Shown here one piece after another: positions 1-16,694 of a DNA stretch of 16,694 bases (position 1 is its first letter; the number at the start of each line of letters is the position of its first letter). This stretch comes from a virus. Its lineage: Duplodnaviria > Heunggongvirae > Uroviricota > Caudoviricetes. The stretch lies in the IMG/VR virus record IMGVR_UViG_2617270968_000003, positions 1-16,694 of that record, one strand, 5' to 3'. Made by a program: the position numbers and the translations under genes. The notes under the pieces are model-generated. The model searched no databases. It was not told the origin of the DNA and worked only from the letters and a program-made list of their open reading frames with translations.

Positions 1-267
1 GATGACCGTTTGGGCTACTTCGTTAATCACGATATGGCGGGGGATGAGGTGCCGGTTCATGCGGATATCCCAAAACAGGAGGGGATTTTCCTGGATGATA
101 CCGACCCCATATCCTCCCCGATGAAGGCCAAAGGTGTCGGTGAGCTGGGCCTGTGCGGCGTGAGCGCGGCTATCGCCAACGCGGTGTATAACGCCACCGG
201 TATTCGGGTACGGGATTATCCCATCACTCTGGATAAGCTGCTCGATAAGCTGCCGGATGTGGTTTAA
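1..267 (+). CDS. paoC: Xanthine dehydrogenase-family molybdopterin-binding subunit (PaoC/YagR-like), C-terminal end; 5' part lies outside window
   Basis: Open frame from nt 1 ending at stop 265-267; C-terminal sequence ...GVGELGLCGVSAAIANAVYNATGIRVRDYPITLDKLLDKLPDVV matches remembered PaoC/XDH C-terminus; followed 9 nt later by paoD with strong SD. Confidence 0.7.
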   Translation, partial: DDRLGYFVNHDMAGDEVPVHADIPKQEGIFLDDTDPISSPMKAKGVGELGLCGVSAAIANAVYNATGIRVRDYPITLDKLLDKLPDVV

Positions 268-276
268 GGAGGAACA

Positions 277-1233: not shown

Positions 1234-1622
1234 TCCTTGCGGCCGGGCGTGGAGAGCGCTTTCTCGCCTCCGGGGGAAATACCCATAAGTGTATCGGCTG
1301 GCGTCAGTCCCCGGAGGTTGCGCCTTATCGCTGGCCATTTGAAGAAAACGGGAGAACTTTCGACCTTGCGATTGAACCGCAGATTACGACTAATGATCTG
1401 CGTCTGATGTTGAGGCTGGCTCTTGCCGGCGGAGGAATAACAATTGCCACTCAGGAAACTTTCAGGCCATATATTGAAAGCGGTAAGCTTGTATCGCTGC
1501 TTGATGACTTTCTTCCACAATTTCCGGGCTTCTATCTGTATTTCCCACAGCGTCGCAATATTGCACCAAAGCTCCGCGCCCTGATTGACTACGTCAAAGA
1601 ATGGCGGCAGCAATTGGCTTAA
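1212..1622 (+). CDS. yagP: YagP-like 136-aa ORF: short nucleotidyltransferase-like N-terminus (MPAPVVLILAAGRGERF) fused to a LysR-type substrate-binding domain C-terminal fragment; probably a gene remnant
   Basis: ATG at 1212 with GAGGAGGA SD, overlapping the paoD stop; 136 aa equals remembered length of K-12 YagP; C-terminal half resembles a LysR effector-domain tail; no HTH N-terminus. Confidence 0.55.
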   Translation: MPAPVVLILAAGRGERFLASGGNTHKCIGWRQSPEVAPYRWPFEENGRTFDLAIEPQITTNDLRLMLRLALAGGGITIATQETFRPYIESGKLVSLLDDFLPQFPGFYLYFPQRRNIAPKLRALIDYVKEWRQQLA

Positions 1623-1746
1623 ATGTCTGCACCTGCACTGCCTGATGTCAGAACAGTATTTTGATGAATTGCCAAGGTTACAATGGCACAAATACGGCAC
1701 AGGAGGAAACGTGGTGTATTTAAATATGGGGTAACTCTTTGATTTT

Positions 1747-3276
1747 AATGGTGCCGATAATAGGAGTCGAACCTACGACCTTCGCATTACGAATTATAAG
1801 AATCCACTTCTAATTCAAAGCATTACCCCATCAACACTGCGCTCACACGTCCCACCACATCAAAACATGTAAAGCCTTGCAAGCCATTGTGAGGCCTTAT
1901 GTGTCTCAGTTTTGTCCCACCTTGTATTACGACTTGCATAGCCAATGAAGATCAACGTGACGACAAACGGCGCAGCAGTCTTCTTTTCCTTCATACTTTC
2001 CCCAATCAGCATACATACTTTCTACCATAACTGTAGTGAATGTCTGTTATGAGCGAGCAAAAGAGATTCAATTACCGGGGAATTACTCCGACATAAGCTC
2101 TCCCAGAAACACCGGAACAGCGATTCGCATATTCTCTTCTATACTTTCAGTCTGACCGGCTGGAGATTTCATAGCAAGAAAATGGATGCGCCAAGACCTA
2201 TGCGGGAAAGAGGCTGAGGAAATAATTGCCGATAGCACTGTGCCCGCCGAAAAGTTATCTGGCACGCAATGACGCGCGTCCTTGGGGCATCAGGAATCAG
2301 AGAGCCAACTTAACAACCCATTATATATTATTTAACCGGACCGTTACATGTACAAAGTTCAATGATTAGTGATTCTGTGACGCCACATACAACCTAAGCC
2401 CCTGATATAAAACCAGTCTATGCAACACCTAAAAATCATATATGATAGGGTGATAAGTCAACGCGCAGTATAAAAATCAAGCTAAAAAATGCTTTCAGCA
2501 TAGTGAATCTATTTCACACTACATAATTAAGGATGAAAAAATGACTGCACCAGTAATTAGTTTTATCAATATGAAAGGTGGGGTTGGTAAAACAACTTTA
2601 TGCGTTGGGATTGCTGAGTTTTTAGCCAACCATATGGGGCGCAAGGTTCTAGTTATCGATATTGATCCTCAATTTAATGCCACTCAGTCCTTAATGGGGC
2701 ATTATGATCGAGTAGAAGAATATATGACTGCCCTTCGCCCTAATAATCAAACCATTCGAAAGATTTTTGAGCTTCCAAATTCATTAATGGAAGATGAAAA
2801 GAAAGTGACACCAGAACAGGTCATTACTAAAGTTTCAGACAATCTTGATATTATCTTAGGTGATATAAACATTATCTTTGATACTAACCAAGAGGGTATT
2901 AGAATAAAAATGTTGCGTAAATTCATCACCGAAAATGACTTAAAAGAAAGTTACGACTATATCTTTATCGATAGCCCCCCAACAATCTCATTATTTACAG
3001 ATACCGCACTCCTTGCTTCTGATTATTATCTTACTCCGGTTAAAATTGATCACTACTCGGTGCTTGGAGCAAGCAGTTTAAATAGCGTTATAAGAAATAT
3101 GCGCACACATCATGAGAAAGAAATCAAGCAAGTCGGTTACATTTATACAAACACTGATGCTGAAATGACCAATAAAACAAGGGAAATTAAAGAGCAATTC
3201 GAAAACCATACTCAATTTACAAATTTTTATTTCTTTGAAAATCAATTAACCTACGTGCGTGATTTAATGGTAGGTT
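1747..3276. repeat. Direct repeat copy 1 (about 1530 bp) of the element's left end: att fragment, 745-bp leader, 5' 736 nt of ParA-like gene
   Basis: Matches 15165..16694 at offset 13,418; verified by eye at both ends and at internal points; two 60-aa ORF translations in the track are identical between copies. Confidence 0.85.
1749..1794 (-). other. 46-nt 3' fragment of tRNA-Thr(CGU) (thrW-type) - attachment-site copy (ptwF-like tRNA pseudogene), copy 1
   Basis: Plus strand reads TGGTGCCGATAATAGGAGTCGAACCTACGACCTTCGCATTACGAAT, the reverse complement of a tRNA 3' end (CCA, acceptor stem, T-arm GGTTCGACTCC, anticodon loop with CGT); similarity stops where the 5' half of a tRNA should be, so the gene is partial. 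Confidence 0.8.
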
Positions 3277-3386
3277 ATCAAGGGAATATTCCTTCTTGTT
3301 ATTCAAAGTCACGCCAAGATATAGAAAAGATCTGTAACGAATTTATTAACAGAGTGGCTCACTTGGAAGGTAACACAAATGAATAA
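2541..3386 (+). CDS. ParA/MinD/Soj-family P-loop ATPase (deviant Walker A), 281 aa; first gene of a three-gene operon
   Basis: N-terminal ISFINMKGGVGKTT (KGGxGKT deviant Walker A), VIDIDPQ, IFIDSPP (ParA-type Walker B region); ATG at 2541 with AAGGA SD 7 nt upstream; AT-rich. Confidence 0.85.
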   Translation: MTAPVISFINMKGGVGKTTLCVGIAEFLANHMGRKVLVIDIDPQFNATQSLMGHYDRVEEYMTALRPNNQTIRKIFELPNSLMEDEKKVTPEQVITKVSDNLDIILGDINIIFDTNQEGIRIKMLRKFITENDLKESYDYIFIDSPPTISLFTDTALLASDYYLTPVKIDHYSVLGASSLNSVIRNMRTHHEKEIKQVGYIYTNTDAEMTNKTREIKEQFENHTQFTNFYFFENQLTYVRDLMVGYQGNIPSCYSKSRQDIEKICNEFINRVAHLEGNTNE

Positions 3387-3777
3387 ACAATTAATTAAAG
3401 CGCTCAATAAAGCTAACAATATGCCCATGACCAAAGAAAACTTCTTAGGCTTGGTAATTATGTTGATTCTTTCAAAAGAGGTTTTTAGATCAAATTTTGA
3501 TGTTAGTAAATTTATTAACAAAACCTTCAAAATATCTTTTTTGAATTATGCTGTACGGTCAAGAACTTTGATGTGCGCTAAAATTTGCAAACATATTAAT
3601 GAATTAAGTGAGAATGACATAAAGATGGCTTATACGCATTTCTTAAACAACATTAACACATTAGACATTATTTTTAATGATGCAAATAAAACAAGCCAAA
3701 AATCCACATCTAAAAGCAAGCATGCTATAAGGAATTTAAATATTTGGATTAATGCAAATAAAAAGGAAGAAGAATAA
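3379..3777 (+). CDS. Hypothetical protein, 132 aa, Lys/Asn-rich; second gene of the ParA-like operon
   Basis: ATG at 3379 overlaps the ParA stop by 8 nt (ATGAATAA) with GGAAGG SD; same AT-rich composition; no motif I can assign. Confidence 0.6.
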   Translation: MNKQLIKALNKANNMPMTKENFLGLVIMLILSKEVFRSNFDVSKFINKTFKISFLNYAVRSRTLMCAKICKHINELSENDIKMAYTHFLNNINTLDIIFNDANKTSQKSTSKSKHAIRNLNIWINANKKEEE

Positions 3778-4442
3778 TGCTCACGCAGGATCCCTTCAAC
3801 ATTGGAAGAGATGTAAATTATTTTAGAGCGGAGGTGCAAAAGCACCTCAGAACCACTGATGAAATAAACAAATCAGTATCAATATTTAGGCAAATAAGTC
3901 TTTGTAATACAATTTTAAGTCACAATCCTAATCTAAATCACTCTTCTTATATAAAAGGTTTTATATATGATACCTTAAACTCCTTAATTGCCATTATAAA
4001 AAAAAGAGAACGGTATCTCCAACTGAACTTCCGCTCAATGGTGGAGCATGTGGCCAGAATAAGCCTCAATAAGAACTACAATGGTGGGGATTTTGACCAA
4101 ACTGTACGTCGTAGAGACTTTGACTTCTTAAAAGCCCAACAAGTCGATGAAGGCTGGTCTTATTTACATAATGTCTATATCAACGCCTGTTATTATGTTC
4201 ACTCCTCCCCCCAAGCGAACCTAAATGTTACATCAACATTTATATCACTTATGGAGGGAGATTGTAATTCAACACAGCATAAAATGGTGAAAAAACTTCA
4301 TGAGGTAGTATCGGCGCTGATGAGAATCATTATAAAGTATTATCATCAGCATATCTCAAACATTTTCTTTAGAAACAAAAAGGATTTAGAGAAAATAATG
4401 GGAAAAAGCCTTTATTCATATTATACCAGCTTAGACAATTAA
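3777..4442 (+). CDS. Hypothetical protein, 221 aa; third gene of the ParA-like operon
   Basis: ATG at 3777 overlaps the previous stop (TAATG) with AAGGAAGA SD; AT-rich; no recognisable domain by eye. Confidence 0.6.
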   Translation: MLTQDPFNIGRDVNYFRAEVQKHLRTTDEINKSVSIFRQISLCNTILSHNPNLNHSSYIKGFIYDTLNSLIAIIKKRERYLQLNFRSMVEHVARISLNKNYNGGDFDQTVRRRDFDFLKAQQVDEGWSYLHNVYINACYYVHSSPQANLNVTSTFISLMEGDCNSTQHKMVKKLHEVVSALMRIIIKYYHQHISNIFFRNKKDLEKIMGKSLYSYYTSLDN

Positions 4443-4479
4443 TTCTCTCATATTCATTGCGTAGAGCATAAATATCTAT

Positions 4480-4900
4480 CTAACCACCTAAAATGCCAGA
4501 AAATCTAGTTGTATACCGGTGCGAAAATATCTCGCGTTTCATCTGCCACTGCTGCTGAATGCCCTGCCCAGCGAAACAGAGTGTTTCCTTCCCGTCTTTT
4601 GCGTTGAGGTGCTCCAGCACGCTCATTAACTTTTCGCTCCCAGGACCCAGCGCGTTATCGTCGAATAGGTTAGGGCATGCTCTGACTGAAGAAGTCCCCC
4701 AGCATTACCCCGGCTTTCTGATATCGGTGTCCGTCTTTCCATATTGCATCCAGACTCCCCGTTGCTACTGCAATGATATCCCGACTGTCCTGTGTCGGGA
4801 TGAGCAGCTTCACCGACGCGTTGTTACAGTAGTACGACTCGTTCAACGCAAAGGGTATCGTGTAAAACCGATGATGACACTGCCGGCAATCAGCACTGAC
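4480..4900 (-). pseudogene. umuC: 3' remnant of a umuC-like Y-family (Pol V) translesion polymerase gene; frameshifted and truncated
   Basis: Minus-strand translation gives ...PFALNESYYCNNASVKLLIPTQDSRDIIAVATGSLDAIWKDGHRYQKAGVMLGDFFSQ, then after a frameshift NLFDDNALGPGSEKLMSVLEHLNAKDGKETLCFAGQGIQQQWQMKREIFSHRYTTRF, closely matching the remembered C-terminal ~140 aa of E. coli UmuC; no intact ORF, N-terminal 2/3 absent. Confidence 0.75.
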
Positions 4901-5372
4901 GTCAGCAAACGTGAGAAAGAACAGATAAGCCGAACGATTTAGGAAATGTTTGAAGAGACTGATATGTGGATGGTTTCAGTTTAAACGCCTTGAACCGTCA
5001 TATTACCTAAGTACAATCCGCTGTGACTGGCAATCATTCAATACTTGCACTATCAAAAGTGCATCAGCCAACCGCAGCACGTCTTGCATACGACCTGTCT
5101 GCGGTTTCAATCACCTCTCACCACCAGTCCCATCAATAATAATTAAACAGCGCCTAAACAAAATAAATAACAACAAGTCAACAACCTCGACAGGATGCCG
5201 ATGGGATGATGAAGAGATAAGAAAGAATAACTAGTAAAGCCCTAAAACGTCAGCGTTCAGACGCGTTTTTTACTTAACCGGTAACAAATACGTTGTATCA
5301 TAGCAACATAAAATGATTGTTCTAAATCAGATTAACTCCTCACTTTTGTACAATGTCGCTTACAGGTATACC

Positions 5373-7262
5373 ATGAAATCCGAGACGCTAACTGTCCAAC
5401 AACTTTTTCAAGACCGCCGACAATACTGTGTTCCATTCTATCAACGTGCCTATGTATGGACTCAGCGAAACCAATGGTCAGCTCTACTGGAGGATATCCT
5501 AGAGAAAGCACAATCCCGGCTCTCGGGTACAAAACCAACTCCCCATTTCCTTGGTGCAGTTGTACTGGAACCTCAACCAAAAAAAGGATTATTCGGTGTA
5601 GATTCCATACATATTATTGATGGTCAGCAACGATTGACCACTCTTCAATATGTTCTGGCATCCATCCGATTAGCATTACGTGCAACAGATCTTTCCAACT
5701 TAGAGCCTCTCATTTCGTCTTGCCTGAAAAACTCAAACGAAGACACAATGCGAAATAAAGAAGTAGAGCGCTTCAAACTGTGGCCAACTTTTCGGGATCA
5801 AACTCATTTTATTCAAAGTTTTAATGTTGAAAATATTGACGATATCCGGAATGTATTCTCTGATAGTTTCACGCAGCATGGTACGTTGCGTAAGCATTTT
5901 AATCACCCGCCATCACTAGAAGCATTATGTTTTTTTACTGAAGCCTTTATAAAGTGGATTAAAATAGAAAATCACTCACCACGAGAAAATGCTGTAGCAT
6001 TAATTGAGGCTGTCTTGACGGATCTGAAACTAGTAAGCATATTTCTCGAGGCTGAAGATGACGCTCAAATAATTTTTGAAACATTAAATGGCAGAGGTGC
6101 GGAACTTCATGCCACAGATCTTATTCGCAATTATATTTTTATGTGCGCTGAACATGAAAATATTAATGCTGTTGAATTATATGAGAATGAGTGGAAGATC
6201 TTTGAAGATACGTACTGGTCAGAAAGACAACGTCGTGGTCGTATTAATAAACCACGCATGGAGTGGCTAGTGCATGCAACATTGCAATCAGAAAGGCAAC
6301 GTGAAATCGATCTGTCTCGTCTTTACAATGAGTATCGTGATTATGTAAGTAAGGACTTGCCTTCACAACGAGCAGATCTGCAAGTAAAGCGCCTCAAACA
6401 ATATGCATCACAATATAAAGAATTGGTTGGTGGTTTTGGCACAACCCCCATCTCACACTTTGGACATCGCATCGCAGCCTATGATGTGACGACACTTTAT
6501 CCGCTTGCTTTGTTCATTTCGATAGCTAACATCGCCGATGATGAGAAAGCAGCCATGTATAATGATCTTGTCTCCTACGTAGTACGAAGAGCCGTATGTG
6601 GCCTGACGCCAAAGAATTACAACAATGTATTTATGAATGTATTGCGGCACTTGTCTAAAACAGAAATTTCCAGTGTTGAGTTACGTAATATCCTCAATAG
6701 CTTAAATGGCGAAGCCTCACGTTGGCCTGGGGACTCAGAATTTCTCAACGCTTGCATCAATGCTCCACTTTATCCTGGCAGGCTCGACGCACCGAAAATG
6801 CGCTCAATGTTAACGGAACTTGAAAGAGAACTTTGTCGCCAAGTGAAGACAGAGAAGCCTGATGTTCCAAATCTTTCTAACCTCGATATCGATCATCTTA
6901 TGCCTCAAAGTTGGTATTCCTGTTGGCCTCTCGAAAATGGTCATATGGTGACAAATTCAGATGCTACGGTATTGAACCAAATTGTTCTGTCTGGAACCGA
7001 TCTTACCCCAGAACAGCTACTGGTAAGGAAACGGCAACAAGCGATAGCTACGTTGGGAAATCTAACTTTGCTTAACCTTAGCGTAAACCGTTCTGTTCAG
7101 AATGCTGTATTTCTGAAAAAACGTGATGCTCTCATCGTCCACACCAATCTACGACTGAACATTCCACTTATAGTTAAGGATAAATGGGATGAGGATGAAA
7201 TCCTGGAGCGGGGTAAAATGTTGGGGGAAATTGCATTGAAAGTATGGCCAAAACACGATTAA
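5373..7262 (+). CDS. GmrSD-family type IV (modification-dependent) restriction endonuclease: N-terminal DUF262 (ParB-like NTPase) + C-terminal DUF1524 (His-Me finger nuclease)
   Basis: DUF262 signatures VPFYQRAYVW and IIDGQQRLTT; C-terminal DIDHLMPQSW ... LGNLTLLNLSVNRSVQNAVFLKKR typical of DUF1524; about 630 aa. Start taken at 5373 (MKSETLT, weak AGG SD); in-frame ATG at 5313 is possible. Confidence 0.8.
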   Translation: MKSETLTVQQLFQDRRQYCVPFYQRAYVWTQRNQWSALLEDILEKAQSRLSGTKPTPHFLGAVVLEPQPKKGLFGVDSIHIIDGQQRLTTLQYVLASIRLALRATDLSNLEPLISSCLKNSNEDTMRNKEVERFKLWPTFRDQTHFIQSFNVENIDDIRNVFSDSFTQHGTLRKHFNHPPSLEALCFFTEAFIKWIKIENHSPRENAVALIEAVLTDLKLVSIFLEAEDDAQIIFETLNGRGAELHATDLIRNYIFMCAEHENINAVELYENEWKIFEDTYWSERQRRGRINKPRMEWLVHATLQSERQREIDLSRLYNEYRDYVSKDLPSQRADLQVKRLKQYASQYKELVGGFGTTPISHFGHRIAAYDVTTLYPLALFISIANIADDEKAAMYNDLVSYVVRRAVCGLTPKNYNNVFMNVLRHLSKTEISSVELRNILNSLNGEASRWPGDSEFLNACINAPLYPGRLDAPKMRSMLTELERELCRQVKTEKPDVPNLSNLDIDHLMPQSWYSCWPLENGHMVTNSDATVLNQIVLSGTDLTPEQLLVRKRQQAIATLGNLTLLNLSVNRSVQNAVFLKKRDALIVHTNLRLNIPLIVKDKWDEDEILERGKMLGEIALKVWPKHD

Positions 7263-7284
7263 TGCAATTAATAAAATGATTATA

Positions 7285-7310
7285 GCGGCCTTACATTAGT
7301 AAGGCCGCTA
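7285..7310 (+). terminator. Stem-loop downstream of the GmrSD gene (11-bp perfect stem AGCGGCCTTAC / GTAAGGCCGCT, 4-nt loop)
   Basis: Perfect inverted repeat 23 nt after the stop; trailing sequence only moderately T-rich, so may act as terminator or RNA-stability hairpin. Confidence 0.55.
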
Positions 7311-7512
7311 CTCACTATTAAATCCTTTAATTTGCAACAAGAACAGCAGTGTCAGCCCTAGGTTTCGGACTTTGTACCGCTTATCTTGTCTTCAAAAATC
7401 AGCTCGCATCCTGCACAGCTCAACGCATTACGTTGTAGATCGGTGTTCTGGTCATTTGTTGATACGCGTACATAGCCAATAAGCATGGTAGATCCCCCTG
7501 ACAAAAGCAGGA

Positions 7513-8085
7513 ATGATGCCATTTGCTCGTTATTTCTGCATTTTCATAAACGTTGGTTTGGGAGAAGGTGCTCCAGCTATTGGCGTTCCGTTCTTCTGGC
7601 CGTCCGCCGCAATGCCAAATACTGTAATCGACAGTTGGTCCAGTATGGTGTTTTTGAAGTTCAACGGCGCGAAATTCTCTGCCACTGATTACCCTGTGCT
7701 GGCGAAAGTGTTTCCGGCGCTAGCATTACCTGACGCACGGGGTGATTTCATTCGTATCTGGGATGATGGGCGCGGGATTGATGTCGGACGTACCCTACTT
7801 TCAGGGCAATCACACACAATTATGGATCATGCACACAATATGGAATTGTGGACGGGGGACGGGCTTGCCGCAGGAAGTGCACGGGAAGGAGTAAACCCAG
7901 GAATACTGGCTACATACGGTGACGGGGGAATAGTTAAAACGGACGAACCCGGTCTTAAGGTGCCTTCCTCACTACGAGCTCTTAGCTCTCGTAGTGTTAA
8001 ACGTTATGGTGAAATTAGTGGAAATGTAGATACAGAAACCCGTCCACGAAATATTGCATTTAACTTTCTGGTGAGGGCTAAATAA
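7513..8085 (+). CDS. Phage tail-fibre C-terminal fragment (tail-collar domain), 190-aa ORF; probably a remnant
   Basis: PFFWP...MPNTVIDSW...NGAKFSATDYPVLAKVFP...LPDARGDFIRIWDDGRGID fits the phage tail-collar pattern; C-terminal ...ETRPRNIAFNFLVRAK is tail-fibre-like; no N-terminal anchoring region and no other structural genes nearby. Confidence 0.5.
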   Translation: MMPFARYFCIFINVGLGEGAPAIGVPFFWPSAAMPNTVIDSWSSMVFLKFNGAKFSATDYPVLAKVFPALALPDARGDFIRIWDDGRGIDVGRTLLSGQSHTIMDHAHNMELWTGDGLAAGSAREGVNPGILATYGDGGIVKTDEPGLKVPSSLRALSSRSVKRYGEISGNVDTETRPRNIAFNFLVRAK

Positions 8086-8146
8086 TGATACCTGTTTTTG
8101 ATGAAAATGGGCTGGCTACAGTGCCGGGCGATATGCGTTGTTTTTA

Positions 8147-8320
8147 TTATAATGCAGTATCCCCTTCACAACGGTGAGCCACACGCCCACTCTGACGTAA
8201 CTTGCTTGCTGACTGCTGAACGCGCTGCCGCGAGTAACCAGCAAAAGCATCCGCAATGTCTCCGGAAGTACACCCCGGATTGGCTTCAATGAATTTCTGA
8301 ACGTCATTTAACAGACTCAT
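8147..8320 (-). CDS. Small hypothetical protein (57 aa), possible winged-helix DNA-binding protein, coupled to the replication gene
   Basis: ATG at 8320 lies 2 nt after the TGA stop of the upstream gene, with an AGGGGG SD; translation MSLLNDVQKFIEANPGCTSGDIADAFAGYSRQRVQQSASKLRQSGRVAHRCEGDTAL; under 60 aa so absent from the ORF track. Confidence 0.4.
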   Translation of the reverse strand: MSLLNDVQKFIEANPGCTSGDIADAFAGYSRQRVQQSASKLRQSGRVAHRCEGDTAL

Positions 8321-8322
8321 GA

Positions 8323-9264
8323 TCACCCCCTGAATCCTGCCGGGATCTGGCTGTAGTCCACGTTGTCGTAACTGGCTTTGAAGTACGGGTCTTCACGTTT
8401 TTCTGTGTGCGTGCTGACGGACGGCGATAAGCGCAGGGAAAGCTCATCCCATTTTTCCCGCAACTTCGACGGGCTGAGCACGTTACGGCACCAGAACGGA
8501 TCGCGGCTGACGCGGCTGTACATCTCGCAGATTTGTTTGTGAGTACGACCATCCTGCACACACATCAGGCGAATTTCGTTTGCCCAGGCTGTCCAGTTAG
8601 GTTCTTTGGGACGAACCACCTCGCCGTCACATTCGGCGGCCTGCTCGTACAGGGCGATGATTTTTTTCCAGAGCCACTGTGCGCAGGTCAAATCATCCTG
8701 CGTTCCCCACTGGCGCTTTTTAGAGCTGAATACAACCGCATCAGGATGACGAGTTAAAAAATCCTGTTCATCCTTCTTCATGTCCGGTTGCGAAGCGTCC
8801 GGACGAGAAGTTTTTTTATCTGACGGATCATGTTTTGATTTTACTGACGGATCCCCGCCAGATTCTGACGGGTGAAAACCCGCTTTTTTGCCAGATTTCG
8901 ACGCATCAAATTTTGACGGGTCAGATTTTGATGCGTCAGATTTTGACGGGTCAGAATCTGACAGTTGAGAAAATGCCGCTGCCTGAAGCTTCGCAACGTT
9001 AAGCTGATAAACATTCGACGCATTGCGGTTACCCTGGCGACGCGCCTTACGCGTTAACCAGCCTTCTGCTTCCAGCCGTGCGATAGCCGTTCTGACGGTA
9101 CTCATCCCCGCGCCAATCTGGCGGGCAATGGTTTCAATTGATGGCCAGCACACACCTTCGTCATTACTGAAATCAGCCAGGCGGGCCATAATTGCCACGC
9201 TGGATAACTTCATGCCTGACGCAGCGCAACCATCCCATACATAGCCGGTTAATTTAGTGCTCAT
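8323..9264 (-). CDS. Phage replication initiation protein (lambda O-like: N-terminal winged HTH, pentapeptide-repeat linker, C-terminal domain), 313 aa
   Basis: N-terminus LSSVAIMARLADFSNDEGVCWPSIETIARQIGAGMSTVRTAIARLEAEGWLTRKARRQGNRNASNVYQLN resembles replication-initiator wHTH domains; GAGG SD before ATG at 9264; position after cro/CII genes on the same strand. Confidence 0.65.
   Translation of the reverse strand: MSTKLTGYVWDGCAASGMKLSSVAIMARLADFSNDEGVCWPSIETIARQIGAGMSTVRTAIARLEAEGWLTRKARRQGNRNASNVYQLNVAKLQAAAFSQLSDSDPSKSDASKSDPSKFDASKSGKKAGFHPSESGGDPSVKSKHDPSDKKTSRPDASQPDMKKDEQDFLTRHPDAVVFSSKKRQWGTQDDLTCAQWLWKKIIALYEQAAECDGEVVRPKEPNWTAWANEIRLMCVQDGRTHKQICEMYSRVSRDPFWCRNVLSPSKLREKWDELSLRLSPSVSTHTEKREDPYFKASYDNVDYSQIPAGFRG
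8861..8964. repeat. Imperfect tandem 15-bp repeats (GATTTTGACGGGTCA-like, about 6 units) inside the replication-initiator gene, encoding DPSKS/DASKS pentapeptide repeats
   Basis: Units at 8861, 8894, 8909, 8924, 8939 and a partial one at 8954; protein shows SDSDPSKSDASKSDPSKFDASKSGKK. Confidence 0.8.
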
Positions 9265-9273
9265 GACCGACCT

Positions 9274-9612
9274 CTATTTCCCTGAATTTACGACGAAACT
9301 GTTCGAGCGGGCTGAAGCACTCATGCTCATAGCCTTCGCGGAGGTAGATAACCCGTTGTGTTTCCGGCTCCCAACGAATGACTCTGACGGGTACTCCGTA
9401 GTGATCTTTGAACCAGCGGTTAACTTGTCGCAAAGGACTGTCTCCTTCTGCCGGTTGAAATCACCCACAGCCCACTCTGCAAAGCTGTGGGTTACAATTT
9501 CCCTGTCACCTGGTACATTCACTGCATAGCAATATTCCACCTTCGCTTTTCCACCCGGTACAGGAAGCGCAATCAGTTGCGAGCGACGGTAGTGTGTTGT
9601 TAAACTGTTCAT
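9274..9612 (-). CDS. Hypothetical protein, 112 aa, between CII-like and replication genes
   Basis: ATG at 9612 overlaps the CII-like stop as ATGA; GGAGA SD 9 nt upstream; stop 9 nt before the next gene's SD. Contains a 9-bp perfect hairpin at 9463..9492. No recognisable domain. Confidence 0.45.
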
Positions 9613-10178
9613 GCGTTAGTTTCTCCACAACCAGAAGCAATCGACGCCACGACGCCCGGAGCTGCACACTCGCGGGCGTCATTACTTTCTGAAATGCAAA
9701 AAATTTTGTAAACAAGTGCTGCATGCTCCTGCAGCTTCGAAATTGAGAGATACAGCTCGTCGTTAATTGCTGTCTTCTCATGCGGTTCCACTACACCGTC
9801 TTCGATTGCTGAACGAATCTGTTTTGAATAACTGCCGATCTGTTCAATGACTTCCAGCAGACGCTGGTTAATATCGGCGTTGTCCACATCCTCGACGTCA
9901 GGAAGAGACACAAAGACGCCATTTGCAGACTGCGCCACAGCATCAGCAATGAAGTGAGTGCCACCAGCACGCTGTAAAACCATTGCCCATCCCAGCGGGA
10001 AAATCTGATCGCCATCTGCACGAAGGCGGTTGAATAAAGCGTTTTCTGTTACATCGAGCCAGTCAGCCGCTTCAGCGTAACCACCCGGCAACGCCGCGAT
10101 AGTTTTTCTGACAGCTTTCACGTACCACTCAGGCTGTTTTTCTATTTTCCAGTGATGCTTACCCACGATTAGCCTCAT
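9609..10178 (-). CDS. Phage regulatory protein, CII-like (CP76/YdaT-like family), 189 aa
   Basis: Immediately downstream of the cro-like gene on the same strand, as lambda cII is; size and context fit the enterobacterial prophage CII-like family; family assignment is from memory. Confidence 0.5.
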
Positions 10179-10209
10179 CGTTCTGTGGTTAAAAATTGAA
10201 AGTGTTCTG

Positions 10210-10410
10210 CTAATCTTTCGGATAGATATCCGGTCTTAAGTCAGATTTCGTAATTGCACCTGACGTGCATTGCTCAAGTTTTTTAGCCAGCACAAAACTG
10301 GCTTTTTTATAGCCATTGAAAACCAGCCGTAAGTAGCCAGGTGTTGAGCCAACTTTTCCGGCCAACTCGCCCTGCTGTTCTTTGGTTAAAGAGTCCCAAT
10401 ACGATTTCAT
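10210..10410 (-). CDS. Cro/YdaS-like HTH transcriptional regulator, 66 aa
   Basis: ATG at 10410 with GGAGG SD 9 nt upstream; MKSYWDSLTKEQQGELAGKVGSTPGYLRLVFNGYKKASFVLAKKLEQCTSGAITKSDLRPDIY resembles Cro/YdaS-type HTH proteins; divergent from the cI-like gene. The longer 167-aa ORF in the track is an upstream extension without SD. Confidence 0.65.
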   Translation of the reverse strand: MKSYWDSLTKEQQGELAGKVGSTPGYLRLVFNGYKKASFVLAKKLEQCTSGAITKSDLRPDIYPKD

Positions 10411-10500
10411 ACGATATGTACCTCCGGTGTACATATTACATGATTGAAATGAACCTTCAAGATACTTGTACCTTAACGGTACAAGGGTTTTAATTTCGTT
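10411..10500. promoter_or_regulatory. Divergent cI/cro intergenic control region with two palindromic operator-like sites
   Basis: Inverted repeats ATGTACCTCCGGTGTACAT (10416..10434) and CTTGTACC-TTAAC-GGTACAAG (10465..10485), both built on TGTACC/GGTACA half-sites, between divergent repressor and cro-like starts. Confidence 0.6.
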
Positions 10501-11175
10501 ATGAAAACAATCCATGACATCCGGCGGTCTAACGCCAGAAAACTGAGAGATGGTGTTGGCGGGAATTCTTCCTTTGCCACTATGATTGATCGCGAGCCAA
10601 CCCAGACCAGCAGGTTTATGGGAGATGGTGCTACTAAAAATATCGGTGACAGCATGGCACGACACATCGAAAAATGTTTCGACCTGCCTGTCGGATGGCT
10701 CGATCAAGAACACCAGACAACGAACATCACAAAAAAACCTGATGTTTCAATCACTAATAAACAAATCACATTAGTCCCTGTCATATCATGGGTACAGGCC
10801 GGAGCATGGAAAGAAGTTGGATATTCTGAGGTTGATTTGAGCACAGCAGAAACGTATCCCTGCCCTGTACCCTGTGGGGAAATGACTTATATCTTGCGGG
10901 TGATAGGTGATTCAATGATTGATGAGTACCGCCCGGGAGACATGATTTTTGTCGATCCTGAAGTACCTGCCTGCCACGGTGACGACGTTATTGCATTGAT
11001 GCACGATACAGGTGAAACCACCTTCAAAAGGTTGATAGAAGATGGGACACAGCGTTATCTCAAAGCGTTAAACCCAAACTGGCCTGAGCCTTACATTAAG
11101 ATCAACGGTAATTGCTCTATAATTGGAACTGTGATTTTCTCAGGAAAACCAAGAAGATACAAAATCAAAGCCTAA
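10501..11175 (+). CDS. CI-like phage repressor with C-terminal S24 (LexA-like) autopeptidase domain, 224 aa
   Basis: C-terminal VIGDSMIDEYRPGDMIFVDP...GDDVIA (S24 Ser site GDSM, later Lys); divergent from cro-like gene; no SD upstream of the ATG, so possibly leaderless like lambda cI from PRM. Confidence 0.75.
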   Translation: MKTIHDIRRSNARKLRDGVGGNSSFATMIDREPTQTSRFMGDGATKNIGDSMARHIEKCFDLPVGWLDQEHQTTNITKKPDVSITNKQITLVPVISWVQAGAWKEVGYSEVDLSTAETYPCPVPCGEMTYILRVIGDSMIDEYRPGDMIFVDPEVPACHGDDVIALMHDTGETTFKRLIEDGTQRYLKALNPNWPEPYIKINGNCSIIGTVIFSGKPRRYKIKA

Positions 11176-11187
11176 TCAATGTTTATG

Positions 11188-11210
11188 AACCTGCTTCGGC
11201 AGGTTTTTTT
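11188..11210 (+). terminator. Rho-independent terminator after the cI-like gene
   Basis: AACCTGC-TTCG-GCAGGTT hairpin followed by TTTTTTT, 13 nt after the stop. Confidence 0.75.
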
Positions 11211-11214
11211 ATAC

Positions 11215-11243
11215 TTGACAATGTACCCTTGAGATACATAATG
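11215..11243 (+). promoter_or_regulatory. Sigma70-like promoter (TTGACA, 17-nt spacer, ATAATG) overlapped by two direct AATGTACCC repeats
   Basis: TTGACA at 11215..11220 and CATAAT/ATAATG at 11237..11243; the repeats share the TGTACC half-site seen in the cI/cro operators. Confidence 0.5.
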
Positions 11244-11323
11244 TACCCAAGAGAAACAACAAACAGGCAGAACGCCCACGAAGTAGCCGCCTGGGGCATA
11301 TGAAGTCCAGGATGATTCGTTAG

Positions 11324-11351
11324 CAACAAAAAAGCGCCCTACAGGACGCTT
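11324..11351 (-). terminator. Rho-independent terminator on the minus strand (8-bp stem with one G-U, UGUA loop, U-run)
   Basis: Minus strand reads AAGCGUCC-UGUA-GGGCGCUU followed by UUUUUUGUUG; on the plus strand the hairpin lacks a U-run. Confidence 0.55.
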
Positions 11352-11409
11352 AGCTCTTTAACAATCTGGTCCCCATCAACAAGTAACTGATAACTTGAGG
11401 AGGTGTGAA

Positions 11410-11616
11410 ATGCACAAAACAGAACCCAAAATCGTCGCGCCCGGATACACAAATGAGGAAATTTACGAGTGGATGGCAAAGAAGCTGGCAGCTATAAACC
11501 AGCTTCGTGAAGTGCTGTCTTATCGACAGGAAATAATAGACTCCTTAAAAAAACTGGATCAGGAAATCACGGTTTTATCACAGGATGTTACTTTAGATAT
11601 TGTGCAGACAAATTAG
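11410..11616 (+). CDS. Small hypothetical protein, 68 aa
   Basis: ATG at 11410 with GAGGAGGTG SD; coiled-coil-like composition; 3' end overlaps the convergent 144-aa gene by 29 nt. Confidence 0.5.
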   Translation: MHKTEPKIVAPGYTNEEIYEWMAKKLAAINQLREVLSYRQEIIDSLKKLDQEITVLSQDVTLDIVQTN

Positions 11617-12022
11617 GATCCCATTCATTTTCGTCAAAATCATCAAAGTGATGAATTTGTGATCTCCAGTCTCGATAATCTAAAAATTTCTGGGCGGTTA
11701 CGCTTATTTTATCAAGTGTGAGTTCATCCTGAATTGAAAGAAGAAGTTCATCAAATTTCATCTCATTAATCTGTTTTGGCATCCAGTGATGCTTCATCAG
11801 AATAAGGTGAACCAGAGCCTTTTTCCCATTCAACTGATTATAGGGAGTGCCGAATTTCTTCCGGTGCTCATGTAAGACAAGGTCCAGAAGAGTAAGTAAT
11901 GTTGCCCTTGATTCGACTTTGCTTATTTCGACTGATGACACTACCCCACTGATTTCAATGCCCCGATACTTTCCAACATTTTCACAGTGGGATTTGTACA
12001 GCGTGTAGATATTACCGGACAT
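11588..12022 (-). CDS. Hypothetical protein, 144 aa; orphan accessory gene in the immunity region
   Basis: ATG at 12022 with AAGGAAAAG SD; AT-rich; no recognisable domain; sits where lambdoid phages carry rex/sie-type exclusion genes. Confidence 0.55.
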   Translation of the reverse strand: MSGNIYTLYKSHCENVGKYRGIEISGVVSSVEISKVESRATLLTLLDLVLHEHRKKFGTPYNQLNGKKALVHLILMKHHWMPKQINEMKFDELLLSIQDELTLDKISVTAQKFLDYRDWRSQIHHFDDFDENEWDPNLSAQYLK

Positions 12023-12099
12023 TTCTTTTCCTTTTGCGTTGTTGGGGATAACCAGATTAACCGAATCCTTGTTGTTGGGGAATAACCAGGTCCACCTCG

Positions 12100-12500
12100 C
12101 CTGATGTGGCTAAAAGCAGGCACATAACAGCTAAGTATTTTCAACCAGAGAGAATCCTTAGCGTTGTGGTGAATGCGGCTCAGCGCACGCGGGTTAAGGT
12201 TGAGGCTGACAGTCGACCTTCTGTGGATACCTACCCGCCTGGTGTGCAACCTTCGCCAGGCACCGGGAGGCACCCGGCACCACAACTTTATGCTGTGTGT
12301 AGTCCTGGCGGTACCAGTTTGTACCCTTGCTTCCGGCTGGTACCGTCCTTTTTACAAAACAGAGAAGAGCATCACCGGACGACGGGCTCATAACCCAATC
12401 CATCCGGGCGGCTGCCACCGCAGGTGTTCTTCTCTGTTTTGTGGAGAAACTAACCGCCCCTGCGGGGGCATCTATTGAAACGTAATTGACTCAATAATCG
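12100..12500. other. GC-rich, hairpin-dense non-coding block upstream of the early operon; candidate structured RNA and/or operator region
   Basis: ORFs open in several frames on both strands (typical of GC-rich non-coding DNA); 15-bp perfect inverted repeat 12354..12368 / 12428..12442; 9-bp hairpin 12309..12317 / 12337..12345; further GC hairpins at about 12237..12262, 12263..12280 and 12456..12470. Confidence 0.4.
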
Positions 12501-12567
12501 CCGGATGGTGAGGGCTTCCTTTTCCCAAAATTCAGCGCGGTGCAGCGCATATAAAGTGGAGAACGAA

Positions 12568-13104
12568 ATGTCATTTATTAAAACTTTTTCCGGGAAGCAT
12601 TTTTATTATGACAAGATAAATAAAGACGACATCGTTATTAACGATATCGCGGTTTCCCTTTCAAATATCTGCCGCTTTGCCGGTCATCTTTCTCACTTCT
12701 ACAGCGTCGCCCAACATGCGGTGCTTTGCAGCCAGCTGGTGCCGCAGGAATTTGCTTTTGAAGCTTTAATGCATGATGCAACAGAAGCATATTGCCAGGA
12801 CATCCCCGCACCACTGAAACGACTTCTTCCTGACTATAAACGGATGGAAGAAAAAATAGACGCCGTAATCCGTGAGAAATACGGGTTACCTCCTGTTATG
12901 AGCACGCCAGTGAAATATGCCGATCTCATTATGCTGGCAACCGAACGCCGCGATCTCGGGCTTGATGATGGCTCTTTCTGGCCTGTGCTGGAAGGTATCC
13001 CGGCAACAGAGATGTTCAACGTGATTCCACTGGCTCCAGGCCATGCCTACGGGATGTTTATGGAACGCTTTAACGAATTATCGGAGTTACGCAAATGCGC
13101 ATGA
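12568..13104 (+). CDS. HD-domain metal-dependent phosphohydrolase (YfbR/YfdR-like 5'-deoxynucleotidase family), 178 aa
   Basis: H...HD...D pattern (SVAQHAV, LMHDATEAY, QDIP); ATG at 12568 with GGAG SD; the track's 12505 start has no SD. Confidence 0.65.
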   Translation: MSFIKTFSGKHFYYDKINKDDIVINDIAVSLSNICRFAGHLSHFYSVAQHAVLCSQLVPQEFAFEALMHDATEAYCQDIPAPLKRLLPDYKRMEEKIDAVIREKYGLPPVMSTPVKYADLIMLATERRDLGLDDGSFWPVLEGIPATEMFNVIPLAPGHAYGMFMERFNELSELRKCA

Positions 13105-13457
13105 ATGTTTTCGAAATGGAAGGGTTTCTTCGTGGGAGATGTGTACCGCGAGATCTGAAAGTGAATGAAACGGATGCTGAATACCTAGTGCGTAAATTCG
13201 ATGCGCTTGAAGCTAAATGTGCAGCACAGGAAAACAAAGTAATACCAGTGTCAACTGAACTGCCACCAGCAAATGAAAGTGTTTTGTTATTCGATGCTAA
13301 CGGAGAAGGCTGGCTAATTGGCTGGCGTTCTCTCTGGTACACCTGGGGACAAAAAGAAACCGGAGAATGGCAGTGGACATTTCAGGTCGGGGACCTTGAA
13401 AACGTCAATATCACTCACTGGGCAGTAATGCCAAAAGCACCGGAGGCTGGAGCATAA
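13095..13457 (+). CDS. DUF551-like phage protein, 120 aa
   Basis: Trp-rich C-terminal half (GWLIGWRSLWYTWGQ...WQW...THWAVMP) typical of DUF551 prophage proteins; start overlaps the HD gene stop; GGAG SD. Confidence 0.5.
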   Translation: MRMNVFEMEGFLRGRCVPRDLKVNETDAEYLVRKFDALEAKCAAQENKVIPVSTELPPANESVLLFDANGEGWLIGWRSLWYTWGQKETGEWQWTFQVGDLENVNITHWAVMPKAPEAGA

Positions 13458-13762
13458 TGACCACTTTTACCGACAAAGAACTGATTAAAGAAATTAAAGA
13501 GCGTATCAGCAGCCTTGACGTGCGAGACGATATTGAGCGCCGTGCTTATGAAATCGCACTCCTATCTCTGGAAGTAGAACCAGATGAACGCGAAGCTTAT
13601 GAATTATTCATGGAAAAGCGTTTTGGTGACTTAGTAGATCGTCGGAGAGCAAAAAACGGCGATAACGAATACATGGCATGGAATATGACTCTCGGTTGGA
13701 TCGTCTGGCAGCAACGAGCTGGTATCCATTTCTCAAAAATCTCACAGCAAGAGGTGAAATAA
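13457..13762 (+). CDS. Hypothetical phage protein, 101 aa
   Basis: ATG overlaps the previous stop (TAATG); stop overlaps the xis start (TAATG); part of a coupled operon. Confidence 0.5.
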   Translation: MTTFTDKELIKEIKERISSLDVRDDIERRAYEIALLSLEVEPDEREAYELFMEKRFGDLVDRRRAKNGDNEYMAWNMTLGWIVWQQRAGIHFSKISQQEVK

Positions 13763-14112
13763 TGGAGCCATACAGCCTCACACTCGATGAGGCCTGTCAT
13801 TTTCTCAAGATATCCAGACCGACTGCCATTAACTGGATACGCACAGGGCGTCTTCAGGCAACACGCAAAGATCCCACTAAGAATAAATCTCCTTACCTCA
13901 CAACACGACAAGCCTGCATTGCGGCTCTTCAGTCTCCGCTGCATACTGTCCAGGTGAGCGCGGGTGATGGCATAACAGAGGAAAGAAAATGTCACTCTTC
14001 CGCAGAGGTGAAATATGGTACGCCAGTTTCACATTGCCGAACGGTAAAAGATTTAAACAGTCTCTTGGAACAAAGGACAAAAGGCAGGCGACAGAACTCC
14101 ATGACAAGCTAA
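13762..14112 (+). CDS. xis: Excisionase (Xis/AlpA-type HTH), 116 aa, overlapping the integrase start
   Basis: [37 protein letters not shown] matches the excisionase-family HTH pattern; GAGGTG SD before ATG at 13762; 3' 124 nt overlap the integrase in another frame. Confidence 0.65.
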
Positions 14113-15152
14113 AGGCTGAAGCATGGCGGGTCAGCAAACTTGGTGAAATACCTGATATAACGTTCGAGGAAGCGTGTGTCAGGTGGCTTGAAGAGAAAGC
14201 ACATAAAAAATCACTGGACGATGACAAAAGCCGGATCGGATTCTGGCTTCAACATTTCGCAGGAATGCAACTAAGAGACATTACTGAATCAAAAATTTAT
14301 TCAGCAATGCAGAAAATGACGAACCGGCGTCATGAGGAAAACTGGAGACTCAGGGCAGAAGCATGCAGAAAAAAAGGGAAACCTGTTCCAGAATACACGC
14401 CAAAACCAGCGTCCGTTGCAACGAAGGCTACGCATCTTTCATTTATAAAGGCCCTACTAAGAGCCGCAGAGCGTGAATGGAAAATGCTGGATAAGGCACC
14501 AATTATTAAAGTGCCTCAACCAAAGAATAAACGGATCCGCTGGCTGGAGCCCCATGAAGCACAAAGGCTGATTGATGAATGTCCGGAGCCATTAAAGTCT
14601 GTTGTTGAATTTGCACTGGCAACAGGTTTAAGACGCTCGAACATCATCAACCTTGAATGGCAACAAATAGATATGCAGCGCCGGGTGGCATGGATAAACC
14701 CGGAAGAGAGTAAATCAAACCGCGCAATTGGCGTTGCGCTGAATGATACTGCATGTCGCGTATTGAAAAAACAAATCGGGAATCATCACCGTTGGGTATT
14801 TGTGTACAAGGAAAGCTGTACCAAACCAGACGGAACGAAAGCGCCAACAGTAAGGAAGATGCGGTATGACGCAAACACAGCCTGGAAAGCGGCGCTGAGA
14901 CGGGCTGGTATTGATGATTTCAGATTTCACGACTTGAGACACACCTGGGCAAGTTGGCTGGTTCAAGCCGGAGTCCCGTTGTCAGTGTTACAGGAAATGG
15001 GAGGCTGGGAGTCTATCGAAATGGTTCGTCGATATGCTCACCTTGCACCTAATCACCTTACCGAACACGCACGGCAAATAGACTCGATCCTGAACCCATC
15101 GGTCCCAAATTTGTCCCAGTCAAAAAATAAGGAAGGTACTAATGATGTGTAA
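13989..15152 (+). CDS. int: Tyrosine-type site-specific recombinase (phage integrase), 387 aa
   Basis: N-terminal arm-binding-like [34 protein letters not shown]; C-terminal catalytic [12 protein letters not shown] ... MVRRYAHL (R-H-R-Y); ends 14 nt before the tRNA-fragment att copy. Confidence 0.85.
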
Positions 15153-15166
15153 CTTATTGATTTAAA

Positions 15167-15212
15167 TGGTGCCGATAATAGGAGTCGAACCTACGACCTT
15201 CGCATTACGAAT
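15167..15212 (-). other. 46-nt 3' fragment of tRNA-Thr(CGU), attachment-site copy 2, directly after int
   Basis: Identical to the fragment at 1749..1794; again followed by element-left-end sequence instead of the tRNA 5' half. Confidence 0.8.
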
Positions 15213-15958
15213 TATAAGAATCCACTTCTAATTCAAAGCATTACCCCATCAACACTGCGCTCACACGTCCCACCACATCAAAACATGTAAAGCCTTGCAA
15301 GCCATTGTGAGGCCTTATGTGTCTCAGTTTTGTCCCACCTTGTATTACGACTTGCATAGCCAATGAAGATCAACGTGACGACAAACGGCGCAGCAGTCTT
15401 CTTTTCCTTCATACTTTCCCCAATCAGCATACATACTTTCTACCATAACTGTAGTGAATGTCTGTTATGAGCGAGCAAAAGAGATTCAATTACCGGGGAA
15501 TTACTCCGACATAAGCTCTCCCAGAAACACCGGAACAGCGATTCGCATATTCTCTTCTATACTTTCAGTCTGACCGGCTGGAGATTTCATAGCAAGAAAA
15601 TGGATGCGCCAAGACCTATGCGGGAAAGAGGCTGAGGAAATAATTGCCGATAGCACTGTGCCCGCCGAAAAGTTATCTGGCACGCAATGACGCGCGTCCT
15701 TGGGGCATCAGGAATCAGAGAGCCAACTTAACAACCCATTATATATTATTTAACCGGACCGTTACATGTACAAAGTTCAATGATTAGTGATTCTGTGACG
15801 CCACATACAACCTAAGCCCCTGATATAAAACCAGTCTATGCAACACCTAAAAATCATATATGATAGGGTGATAAGTCAACGCGCAGTATAAAAATCAAGC
15901 TAAAAAATGCTTTCAGCATAGTGAATCTATTTCACACTACATAATTAAGGATGAAAAA

Positions 15959-16694
15959 ATGACTGCACCAGTAATTAGTTTTATCAATATGAAAGGTGGG
16001 GTTGGTAAAACAACTTTATGCGTTGGGATTGCTGAGTTTTTAGCCAACCATATGGGGCGCAAGGTTCTAGTTATCGATATTGATCCTCAATTTAATGCCA
16101 CTCAGTCCTTAATGGGGCATTATGATCGAGTAGAAGAATATATGACTGCCCTTCGCCCTAATAATCAAACCATTCGAAAGATTTTTGAGCTTCCAAATTC
16201 ATTAATGGAAGATGAAAAGAAAGTGACACCAGAACAGGTCATTACTAAAGTTTCAGACAATCTTGATATTATCTTAGGTGATATAAACATTATCTTTGAT
16301 ACTAACCAAGAGGGTATTAGAATAAAAATGTTGCGTAAATTCATCACCGAAAATGACTTAAAAGAAAGTTACGACTATATCTTTATCGATAGCCCCCCAA
16401 CAATCTCATTATTTACAGATACCGCACTCCTTGCTTCTGATTATTATCTTACTCCGGTTAAAATTGATCACTACTCGGTGCTTGGAGCAAGCAGTTTAAA
16501 TAGCGTTATAAGAAATATGCGCACACATCATGAGAAAGAAATCAAGCAAGTCGGTTACATTTATACAAACACTGATGCTGAAATGACCAATAAAACAAGG
16601 GAAATTAAAGAGCAATTCGAAAACCATACTCAATTTACAAATTTTTATTTCTTTGAAAATCAATTAACCTACGTGCGTGATTTAATGGTAGGTT
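15959..16694 (+). CDS. ParA/MinD-like ATPase, second copy, 3' end beyond window
   Basis: Identical to 2541..3276 of copy 1 by the repeat offset; same Walker A motif. Confidence 0.8.
   Translation, partial: MTAPVISFINMKGGVGKTTLCVGIAEFLANHMGRKVLVIDIDPQFNATQSLMGHYDRVEEYMTALRPNNQTIRKIFELPNSLMEDEKKVTPEQVITKVSDNLDIILGDINIIFDTNQEGIRIKMLRKFITENDLKESYDYIFIDSPPTISLFTDTALLASDYYLTPVKIDHYSVLGASSLNSVIRNMRTHHEKEIKQVGYIYTNTDAEMTNKTREIKEQFENHTQFTNFYFFENQLTYVRDLMVG

Follow-up and report, generated by a model that had tools for sequence, protein, structure and literature searches.

Some prophage defence genes are lysogeny-expressed accessory genes that must spare their own phage on induction and need a cognate self-immunity to do so, as described for BstA/aba in Salmonella BTP1 (PMC8585504) and for Tha in Staphylococcus aureus prophages (PMC11087260). 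In this study, we analyse a gene of 144 amino acids (aa) on the minus strand of a 16,694-nucleotide (nt) stretch of Caudoviricetes DNA (IMG/VR record IMGVR_UViG_2617270968_000003, positions 1 to 16,694; hereafter the window, meaning the whole stretch), together with the 68-aa gene that converges on it. The immunity region of lambdoid prophages also houses the exclusion genes rexAB of lambda and sieB of lambda and P22; rexAB is transcribed together with cI from a position between cI and OL, and membrane proteins (RexB, SieA, SieB) are found among the Rex and Sie products. Morons (Juhala/Hendrix), such as bor of lambda, are a further point of reference. Closest in sequence are two catalogued families with no assigned function: that of ECs1072 (now ECs_5703), from prophage Sp4 of Escherichia coli O157:H7 Sakai, which founded NCBIfam NF033230 and PHROG 5286, and that of YdfC, from the Qin prophage of E. 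coli K-12, where ydfA, ydfB and ydfC lie nearest the promoter in the dicBF operon (PMC5069750).

The window gene resembles founder ECs1072 in size, conserved residues and antisense placement within a lytic operon, but follows the early-left promoter pL, whereas the founder sits between cII-like and O-like genes. It shares no sequence or fold kinship with BstA/aba or Tha, and self-immunity through a convergent small protein and antisense transcription is something we infer here. It differs from rex and sie in lying beyond pL on the opposite strand and in encoding a soluble protein unrelated in sequence. As in morons, its occurrence differs between close relatives, a terminator of its own follows it, its composition is somewhat AT-richer and it runs against the surrounding operon; it differs from them in being half of a convergent two-gene unit with no recognisable promoter. 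Across relatives, ECs1072-type genes recur tail-to-tail with YdfC-like genes and antisense to lytic operons, a conserved pairing and embedding that, as far as we could find, appear to be undescribed.

A convergent ECs1072-type and YdfC-type gene pair

The features of the locus, in window coordinates, are as follows.
10416-10434 and 10466-10484: operator-like sites between cI and cro (motif search)
10501-11175: S24/LexA-type cI repressor gene (Pfam)
11187..11206, plus strand: cI terminator (terminator prediction; annotated as a terminator in SfV)
11215..11259, plus strand: pL-like promoter with two overlapping operator-like sites, 11221-11239 and 11241-11259 (promoter and motif search)
11322..11351, minus strand: predicted intrinsic terminator for minus-strand transcripts, found by comparison in phage PhiR29_1 behind a different cargo gene
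11410..11616, plus strand: YdfC-family small protein gene, 68 aa, PHROG 1744, first gene after pL and tail-to-tail partner of the 144-aa gene (similarity searches)
11588..11616, both strands: 29-nt 3′ overlap of the two genes (sequence)
11588..12022, minus strand: ECs1072-family protein gene, 144 aa, equal to SfIV_36 and RefSeq WP_000016389.1 (full-length homologue alignment)
12023..12132, minus strand: conserved 5′ leader of the 144-aa gene (cross-genus comparison)
12129-12117 and 12109-12092, minus strand: leader elements TGTTATGTGCCTG and CCACATCAGGCGAGGTGG, respectively, accompanied by a C/A-rich tract and the Shine–Dalgarno (SD) sequence AAGGAA
12089-12071 and 12055-12038, minus strand: leader direct repeats CTGGTTAT(T)CCCCAACAAC, part of the leader being duplicated in the window
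12133..12355, plus strand: STnc100/PasD-like prophage small RNA (sRNA) element (Rfam RF02076), a conserved flank of the slot and not module-specific

A preliminary description of the 144-aa gene, made from the sequence alone, presented it as an orphan with no recognisable domain. The protein is in fact a full-length member of an existing family: NF033230 (‘ECs1072 family phage-associated protein’, ranked a hypothetical equivalog) scores 157.8 bits against a cut-off of 70, with residues 4-144 on profile positions 2-142, and PHROG 5286 matches residues 1-144 at E 1.5e-90. The statement about domains holds for Pfam, which detected none in the 144-aa protein and no recurrent family when 58 members were scanned one by one. 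A profile search of 1.8 billion representatives recovered 76 clusters at E ≤0.001, nearly all of them single-domain proteins of 143-157 aa, with every source-named representative from the Enterobacterales; a search of genome contigs for the family returned 3 loci only. Residues R54, L64, G66, A69, H72, K77 and W134 are conserved across the family, R54, G66, K77 and W134 being invariant, and H53 and H72 are mostly kept. Because some 76 diverged, full-length homologues of constant size retain these conserved residues, we regard this as a genuine protein-coding gene. Of 5426 complete E. coli genomes, 421 (~8%) carry the gene at ≥95% identity, and the identical protein is known in at least 1000 contigs. 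Shigella phage SfIV matches the region at 98.7% identity, and its SfIV_36 (‘hypothetical protein’) is 100% identical to the 144-aa product.

The ATG start of this 144-codon frame is backed by homologues that align with it over the full length, from M1, and the good SD reported for it is indeed there, AAGGAA at 12033-12028 with its GG 7 nt ahead of the ATG. With a G+C content of 38.6%, against 44.7% in cI, 44.7% in the whole window and 53.9% in 12023-12467, the gene is AT-richer than its surroundings, though only moderately so. Its product (pI 6.4, ~17 kDa) is predicted to be a soluble, all-alpha protein of the ECs1072 family: two AlphaFold models are confident and all-alpha (predicted local distance difference test (pLDDT) 82.4 and predicted template modelling score (pTM) 0.82; pLDDT 85.9 and pTM 0.84), and Kyte–Doolittle analysis, with a maximum 19-residue average of 0.84, finds no membrane segment. 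The corresponding maximum for the 68-aa protein is 0.29; neither product is a small hydrophobic peptide, and by the same measure neither supplies the membrane component typical of Rex and Sie systems.

The remote-homology and structure-based searches proposed earlier as a check yielded the NCBIfam and PHROG family and no relative in the Protein Data Bank (PDB) by sequence or fold. PDB sequence profiles queried with alignments of 5 and 58 sequences contained no relative of the 144-aa protein, and Foldseek comparison of the AlphaFold models with the PDB and viral models gave a best E of 0.5; as far as these libraries go, the modelled fold is unmatched. The combination of a fold match with an H..HD..D or Rx4-6H motif that would mark an HD- or HEPN-type helical nuclease or phosphohydrolase was not found. 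For both the 144-aa and 68-aa proteins, PADLOC-DB 2.0.0 gave no match at E up to 1, with the GmrSD of the window as positive control (1436 bits), and no toxin–antitoxin family matched in Pfam, NCBIfam or PADLOC; Pfam also showed no DNA- or RNA-binding domain in the 144-aa protein. Searching the literature under gene, PHROG, NCBIfam, UniProt and WP names, we found no functional study of the ECs1072 family and nothing beyond one microarray table, in which expression of ECs1072 can be detected in uninduced Sakai and drops >4-fold (log2 -2.13) at stationary-phase entry (PMC2241611).

The 68-aa neighbour was noticed in the preliminary description, along with the 29-nt overlap that we confirm, but its status as a conserved YdfC-family partner was missed. 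The protein matches PHROG 1744 at E 1.8e-33 and, by tblastn, genes annotated ydfC in Qin-type phages at 38-39% identity over 66/68 residues (E 3e-8), and a hidden Markov model of the partner proteins retrieves Qin-type YdfC at E ~1e-12. Beyond its 39% identity to YdfC of the K-12 Qin ydfABC-dicF-dicB operon, the 68-aa gene is likewise promoter-proximal in a repressor-controlled early operon and is likewise followed by a long untranslated stretch with an sRNA-like element (PMC5069750); Qin-type phages differ in having no ECs1072-type gene downstream. The YdfC literature gives no function for the protein. At the overlap, positions 11614-11623 read TAGGATCCCA, a degenerate copy that departs by one base from the palindrome TGGGATCCCA, and W-D-P is present here in both proteins of the relatives in Salmonella phage ST64B, Klebsiella phage KPP5665-2 and Serratia. 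These motifs and the window sequence, rather than the DNA of the relatives, suggest that the relatives have TGGGATCCCA at this site, read on both strands. The TGG>TAG change in the window creates the stop of the small open reading frame (ORF), truncating the 68-aa protein, and is silent (Pro) in the 144-aa frame.

Placement was compared in 13 distinct phage contexts, drawn from the ~76 family clusters, and in 13 of 13 the ECs1072-type gene lies on the strand opposite to the adjoining phage genes.
S24 repressor/early-left gap, antisense: Pectobacterium, Lonsdalea, locus L014 and Symbiopectobacterium
Early-left region, antisense: locus L010
P2-like early operon, antisense: Pantoea prophages
Q/holin gap, antisense: a Serratia prophage, ST64B and KPP5665-2
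Gap between cII-like and O-like replication genes, antisense: E. coli O157:H7 Sakai Sp4, founder ECs1072
cro/O gap, antisense: locus L104
pL-proximal early-left operon, antisense: the window and SfIV

A convergent YdfC-like partner, read with the operon, accompanies the gene in 9 of the 13. The two genes overlap by 29 to ~140 nt in seven contexts, possibly by 317 nt in Sakai, and are separated by a 35-nt gap in L014. The partners are mutually best matches and share an N-terminal motif, (E/Q)P-x5-7-(Y/L)(T/S)-x-(E/Q)(E/Q)L-x-(E/D)W(L/M), whereas three Pectobacteriaceae contexts carry instead a convergent ORF of 109-129 aa, conserved among the three. Sequence comparison of these contexts shows an ECs1072-type gene and a convergent YdfC-family gene that behave as a conserved, mobile two-gene module, embedded antisense in what are, by gene order, lytic operons of the pL, pR, pR′ leader and P2-like early types.

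In the late operons of ST64B (L016, 3281-3715) and KPP5665-2 (L017, 3345-3791), the ECs1072-family genes are antisense and had gone unannotated. Both copies sit within what looks like the pR′-tR′ leader. The ST64B copy is bracketed by a promoter-like site at 4038-4011 and a terminator at 3196-3177.

Regulatory signals and a variable slot

The window copy was described earlier as convergent with the cI operon and as occupying the slot beside the repressor where lambdoid phages carry rex and sie. Convergent it is, but the cI terminator, a strong promoter and two operator-like sites intervene. The promoter, TTGACA-16-CATAAT at 11215-11242 (11/12 matches), is near consensus, and because it carries operator-like sites (ATGTACC-N5-GGTACAT) matching those between cI and cro, we read it as a cI-repressed, early-left pL. 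Four such sites occur in the window, where chance would give 0.56; they form one cluster on either side of cI, and these clusters would be the OR and OL of this type of immunity. Every plus-strand gene downstream, from an HD phosphohydrolase gene to integrase (13989-15152), follows this promoter, which by sequence places the 144-aa gene beyond an operator-bearing pL and antisense inside the early-left operon. The position is therefore not that of rexAB, since the cI terminator, pL and its operators separate the gene from cI.

Downstream of the 144-aa gene, the minus-strand terminator noted earlier at about 240 bp is borne out: a stem at 11351-11332 of 8 pairs (5 GC), followed by TTTTGTTG, lies at a distance of 237 nt from the stop codon. 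Between 10100 and 12700, 10 terminator-like sites were counted, against 2.8 expected in shuffles. The terminator is beyond the whole of 11410..11616, in keeping with the long antisense 3′ untranslated region (UTR) that had been proposed; a minus-strand transcript that reached it would be antisense to the entire 68-aa gene and would end just before pL/OL and cI. Upstream, a ~100-nt leader is kept across genera, with equivalents of the window leader in loci L005, L006, L011 and L014. Its elements keep their order: TGTT(A/G)TGTGCCTG (also written TGTTRTGTGCCTG), then CCACNTCAGGCG..GTGG, the C/A-rich tract and the SD.

The two genes occupy a slot whose content varies among close relatives. The sequence that SfV has in common with the window runs up to 11321 and resumes at 12092, with orf33 on its plus strand in between. 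PhiR29_1 shares sequence up to 11369, minus-strand terminator included, and from 12038, part of the leader included; the segment it lacks, 11370-12037, corresponds almost exactly to the two genes. Between the same leader and terminator, it holds an unrelated 171-aa minus-strand gene (1791-2306 of L019; GTG start) encoding a coiled coil and a zinc ribbon (CxxC...CxxC), with no match to a PADLOC or Pfam family; the annotated 242-aa coding sequence there is probably over-extended. Ayreon has small ORFs only in the slot. Neither a YdfC-like nor an ECs1072-type gene was found in SfV, PhiR29_1 or Ayreon.

Among 80 IMG/VR contigs with an identical 144-aa gene, the YdfC-like gene and the terminator are present in 79, and the leader and STnc100-like flank in all 80. 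Because the cI and pL of the window are found at only 39 of these 80 loci, a block of ~11258-12467 would appear to travel across immunity types. Of the 5426 complete E. coli genomes, 414 carry the small gene and 421 the 144-aa gene, as against 2782 with the STnc100-like flank. Judged from these distributions, the 144-aa and YdfC-like genes are gained and lost together. Pairwise similarity among family proteins correlates with that among their partners (nine cognate pairs; Pearson 0.81, Mantel p 0.0002, Spearman rho 0.45), partly driven by three close pairs. The comparisons support a real and conserved accessory gene, housed in a slot whose content differs among SfV/SfIV-like prophages.

The sRNA-like flank and the prophage remnant

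Beyond the leader in the direction of pL transcription, 12133-12355 on the plus strand aligns with the whole STnc100 model (RF02076, positions 1-206) at 43.1 bits and E 1e-7, below the gathering score of 47; at gathering threshold, Rfam has no match in the window, and it detected no STnc100 in six related loci. STnc100 is related to PasD (bioRxiv 10.64898/2026.05.13.724894). The 335-bp region 12133-12467, present in 2782/5426 complete E. coli genomes, is far commoner than the gene pair. A weak match to DicF at 12294-12348 (E 2.7) was taken as chance. Another sRNA, svsR of the SfV-like prophage NC-SV, is reported to lie where cI ends, on the same strand as that gene (PMC12803456). It is distinct from the 144-aa gene, and any counterpart in the window would be expected at ~11100-11209. 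The STnc100-like element and the 144-aa start are overlapped by two ORFs annotated in SfIV, SfIV_35 (11941-12285, minus strand) and the N-terminal part of SfIV_34 (12173-12478, plus strand), which have no family matches and so are probably mis-annotations.

Part of the window recurs as a perfect direct repeat: 1731-3276 equals 15149-16694, at least 1546 bp with the end of the window cutting it, and the period is 13,418 bp. In the source of the window, a decayed SfV/e14-like prophage of 13.4 kb is apparently tandemly duplicated. This element contains ParA, GmrSD, a replication gene, cII/cro/cI, the module and int. In E. coli IAL7250, it is single-copy, lies between paoD and tRNA-Thr (thrW)/proA, and is full of pseudogenes. 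ARAGORN detected no intact tRNA in the window. The same remnant carries an intact GmrSD-type (DUF262/DUF1524) type IV methyl-directed restriction enzyme at 5313-7262 on the plus strand (PADLOC mREase_IV, 1436 bits).

A proposed lysogenic effector and its alternatives

The explanation that we tentatively prefer is a lysogen-expressed effector that lytic transcription and the YdfC-like partner silence or counteract, and that would most plausibly hit other phages or arrest growth upon infection. In a repressed prophage, with pL off, the 144-aa gene would be free for transcription from its conserved, non-canonical upstream region, and the long 3′ UTR of its transcript would silence leaky YdfC-like mRNA. 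Upon derepression, strong transcription from pL would run into that of the 144-aa gene and its RNA would pair with the 144-aa transcript, and the YdfC-like protein, now made from pL, would bind and neutralise leftover 144-aa protein. The effector would benefit the lysogen and would have to be shut down when the phage itself grows lytically, as a defence-type moron with built-in self-immunity. We favour a defence-type or growth-arresting effector with self-immunity because such wiring suits a function that is useful to the lysogen and harmful to the lytic growth of its phage. BstA/aba and Tha set a precedent for this logic, not for the proteins, and the expression of founder ECs1072 in uninduced Sakai also speaks for it. 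The more specific proposal, that ECs1072-type and YdfC-type proteins form a hitherto unrecognised two-component prophage system in which an anti-phage or growth-arresting effector of new alpha-helical fold has a lytic off-switch made of head-on and antisense transcription and a YdfC antagonist, is possible but distinctly doubtful. The preliminary description had suggested an exclusion or abortive-infection moron, which is possible: accessory status, antisense orientation and an own terminator fit a moron, and nothing links the gene to exclusion or abortive infection, be it a PADLOC match, a membrane segment or a fold match.

Several observations weigh against an effector with a lytic off-switch. 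No homology or fold likeness to a known defence, exclusion or toxin protein emerged from PADLOC, PDB profiles or Foldseek, and the alternative cargoes of the slot, the 171-aa gene of PhiR29_1 and orf33 of SfV, are no known defence genes either. Between 12015 and 12480, the minus strand showed no recognisable sigma-70-like promoter for the 144-aa gene, not even under relaxed criteria, so that lysogenic expression of the window copy is what we infer. The Q-holin contexts place the YdfC-like gene downstream of a pR′-like promoter. As pR′ is constitutive in lambda, lysogens may also produce the partner there, a point that weakens the idea of a lytic-only antidote. For the convergent ORFs of the Pectobacteriaceae, homology to YdfC could not be demonstrated, and L010 has no convergent partner. 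YdfC-family genes also stand alone in Qin-type phages, with no ECs1072-type gene, and therefore the dependence within the pair would run one way; the share of three close pairs in the similarity correlation belongs on this side as well.

The same arrangement could serve the phage's own lysis–lysogeny choice, with antisense transcription, perhaps aided by the 144-aa protein, damping a leaky lytic operon in the manner of an excludon or of oop, and the YdfC-like product or lytic transcription flipping the switch on induction. The position of the gene inside and against lytic operons near their promoters (pL, pR, pR′ leader, P2-like early operon), the full antisense cover of the first pL gene that the terminator placement provides and the conservation of the upstream leader all speak for this. 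So does the Sakai Sp4 copy, between cII-like and O-like genes at the position of lambda oop, an antisense RNA encoded between cII and O. We nevertheless consider such a role rather unlikely, given that the module is dispensable and sporadic among near-identical SfV-like phages, which is unusual for core regulation, that the 144-aa protein has no DNA- or RNA-binding domain and that unrelated cargo fills the same slot. An action on host physiology (metabolism, stress or virulence regulation), as a lysogenic-conversion factor with no phage–phage role and a merely linked YdfC-like gene, is unlikely. It would agree with an intact gene in a heavily decayed 13.4-kb remnant, most of whose phage genes are pseudogenes, with the growth-phase-dependent level of the ECs1072 transcript in Sakai (PMC2241611) and with neighbouring prophage sRNAs, svsR (PMC12803456) and STnc100/PasD (bioRxiv 10.64898/2026.05.13.724894), that act on host genes, but it leaves the strict antisense embedding and the tail-to-tail pairing across five kinds of context unexplained.

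Convergent 3′ overlap is also seen in prophage-borne type I toxin–antitoxin systems of Bacillus, txpA/RatA and bsrG/SR4. The compact window pair has this layout, moves as a unit and persists in a decayed prophage, as might be expected of an addiction module stabilising the prophage, in which one product is growth-inhibitory and is neutralised by the second product or by the antisense RNA that overlaps it. Neither protein is small and hydrophobic, though, no toxin–antitoxin family matches in Pfam, NCBIfam or PADLOC, YdfC genes exist alone and, because the small gene of the window is under a cI-repressed pL, lysogens would not express both products together; we hold an addiction module to be quite improbable. 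That the frame is a chance or decaying ORF with no functional gene, to which the lack of a recognisable promoter and Pfam domain might point, is hardly credible and is refuted by conservation. The ~76 diverged homologues are full-length, constant in size and alike in their conserved residues, the gene is near-identical in 421 genomes and the AlphaFold model is confident.

The module reaches at least five kinds of context in Escherichia, Shigella, Salmonella, Klebsiella, Serratia, Pantoea and Pectobacteriaceae. If the two-component proposal is true, it would provide a first function for the YdfC family, a long-standing family of y-genes. A lysogenic effector with a lytic off-switch, if true, would amount to a new defence-type module with a new fold, and to a clean model of how a prophage avoids targeting itself.

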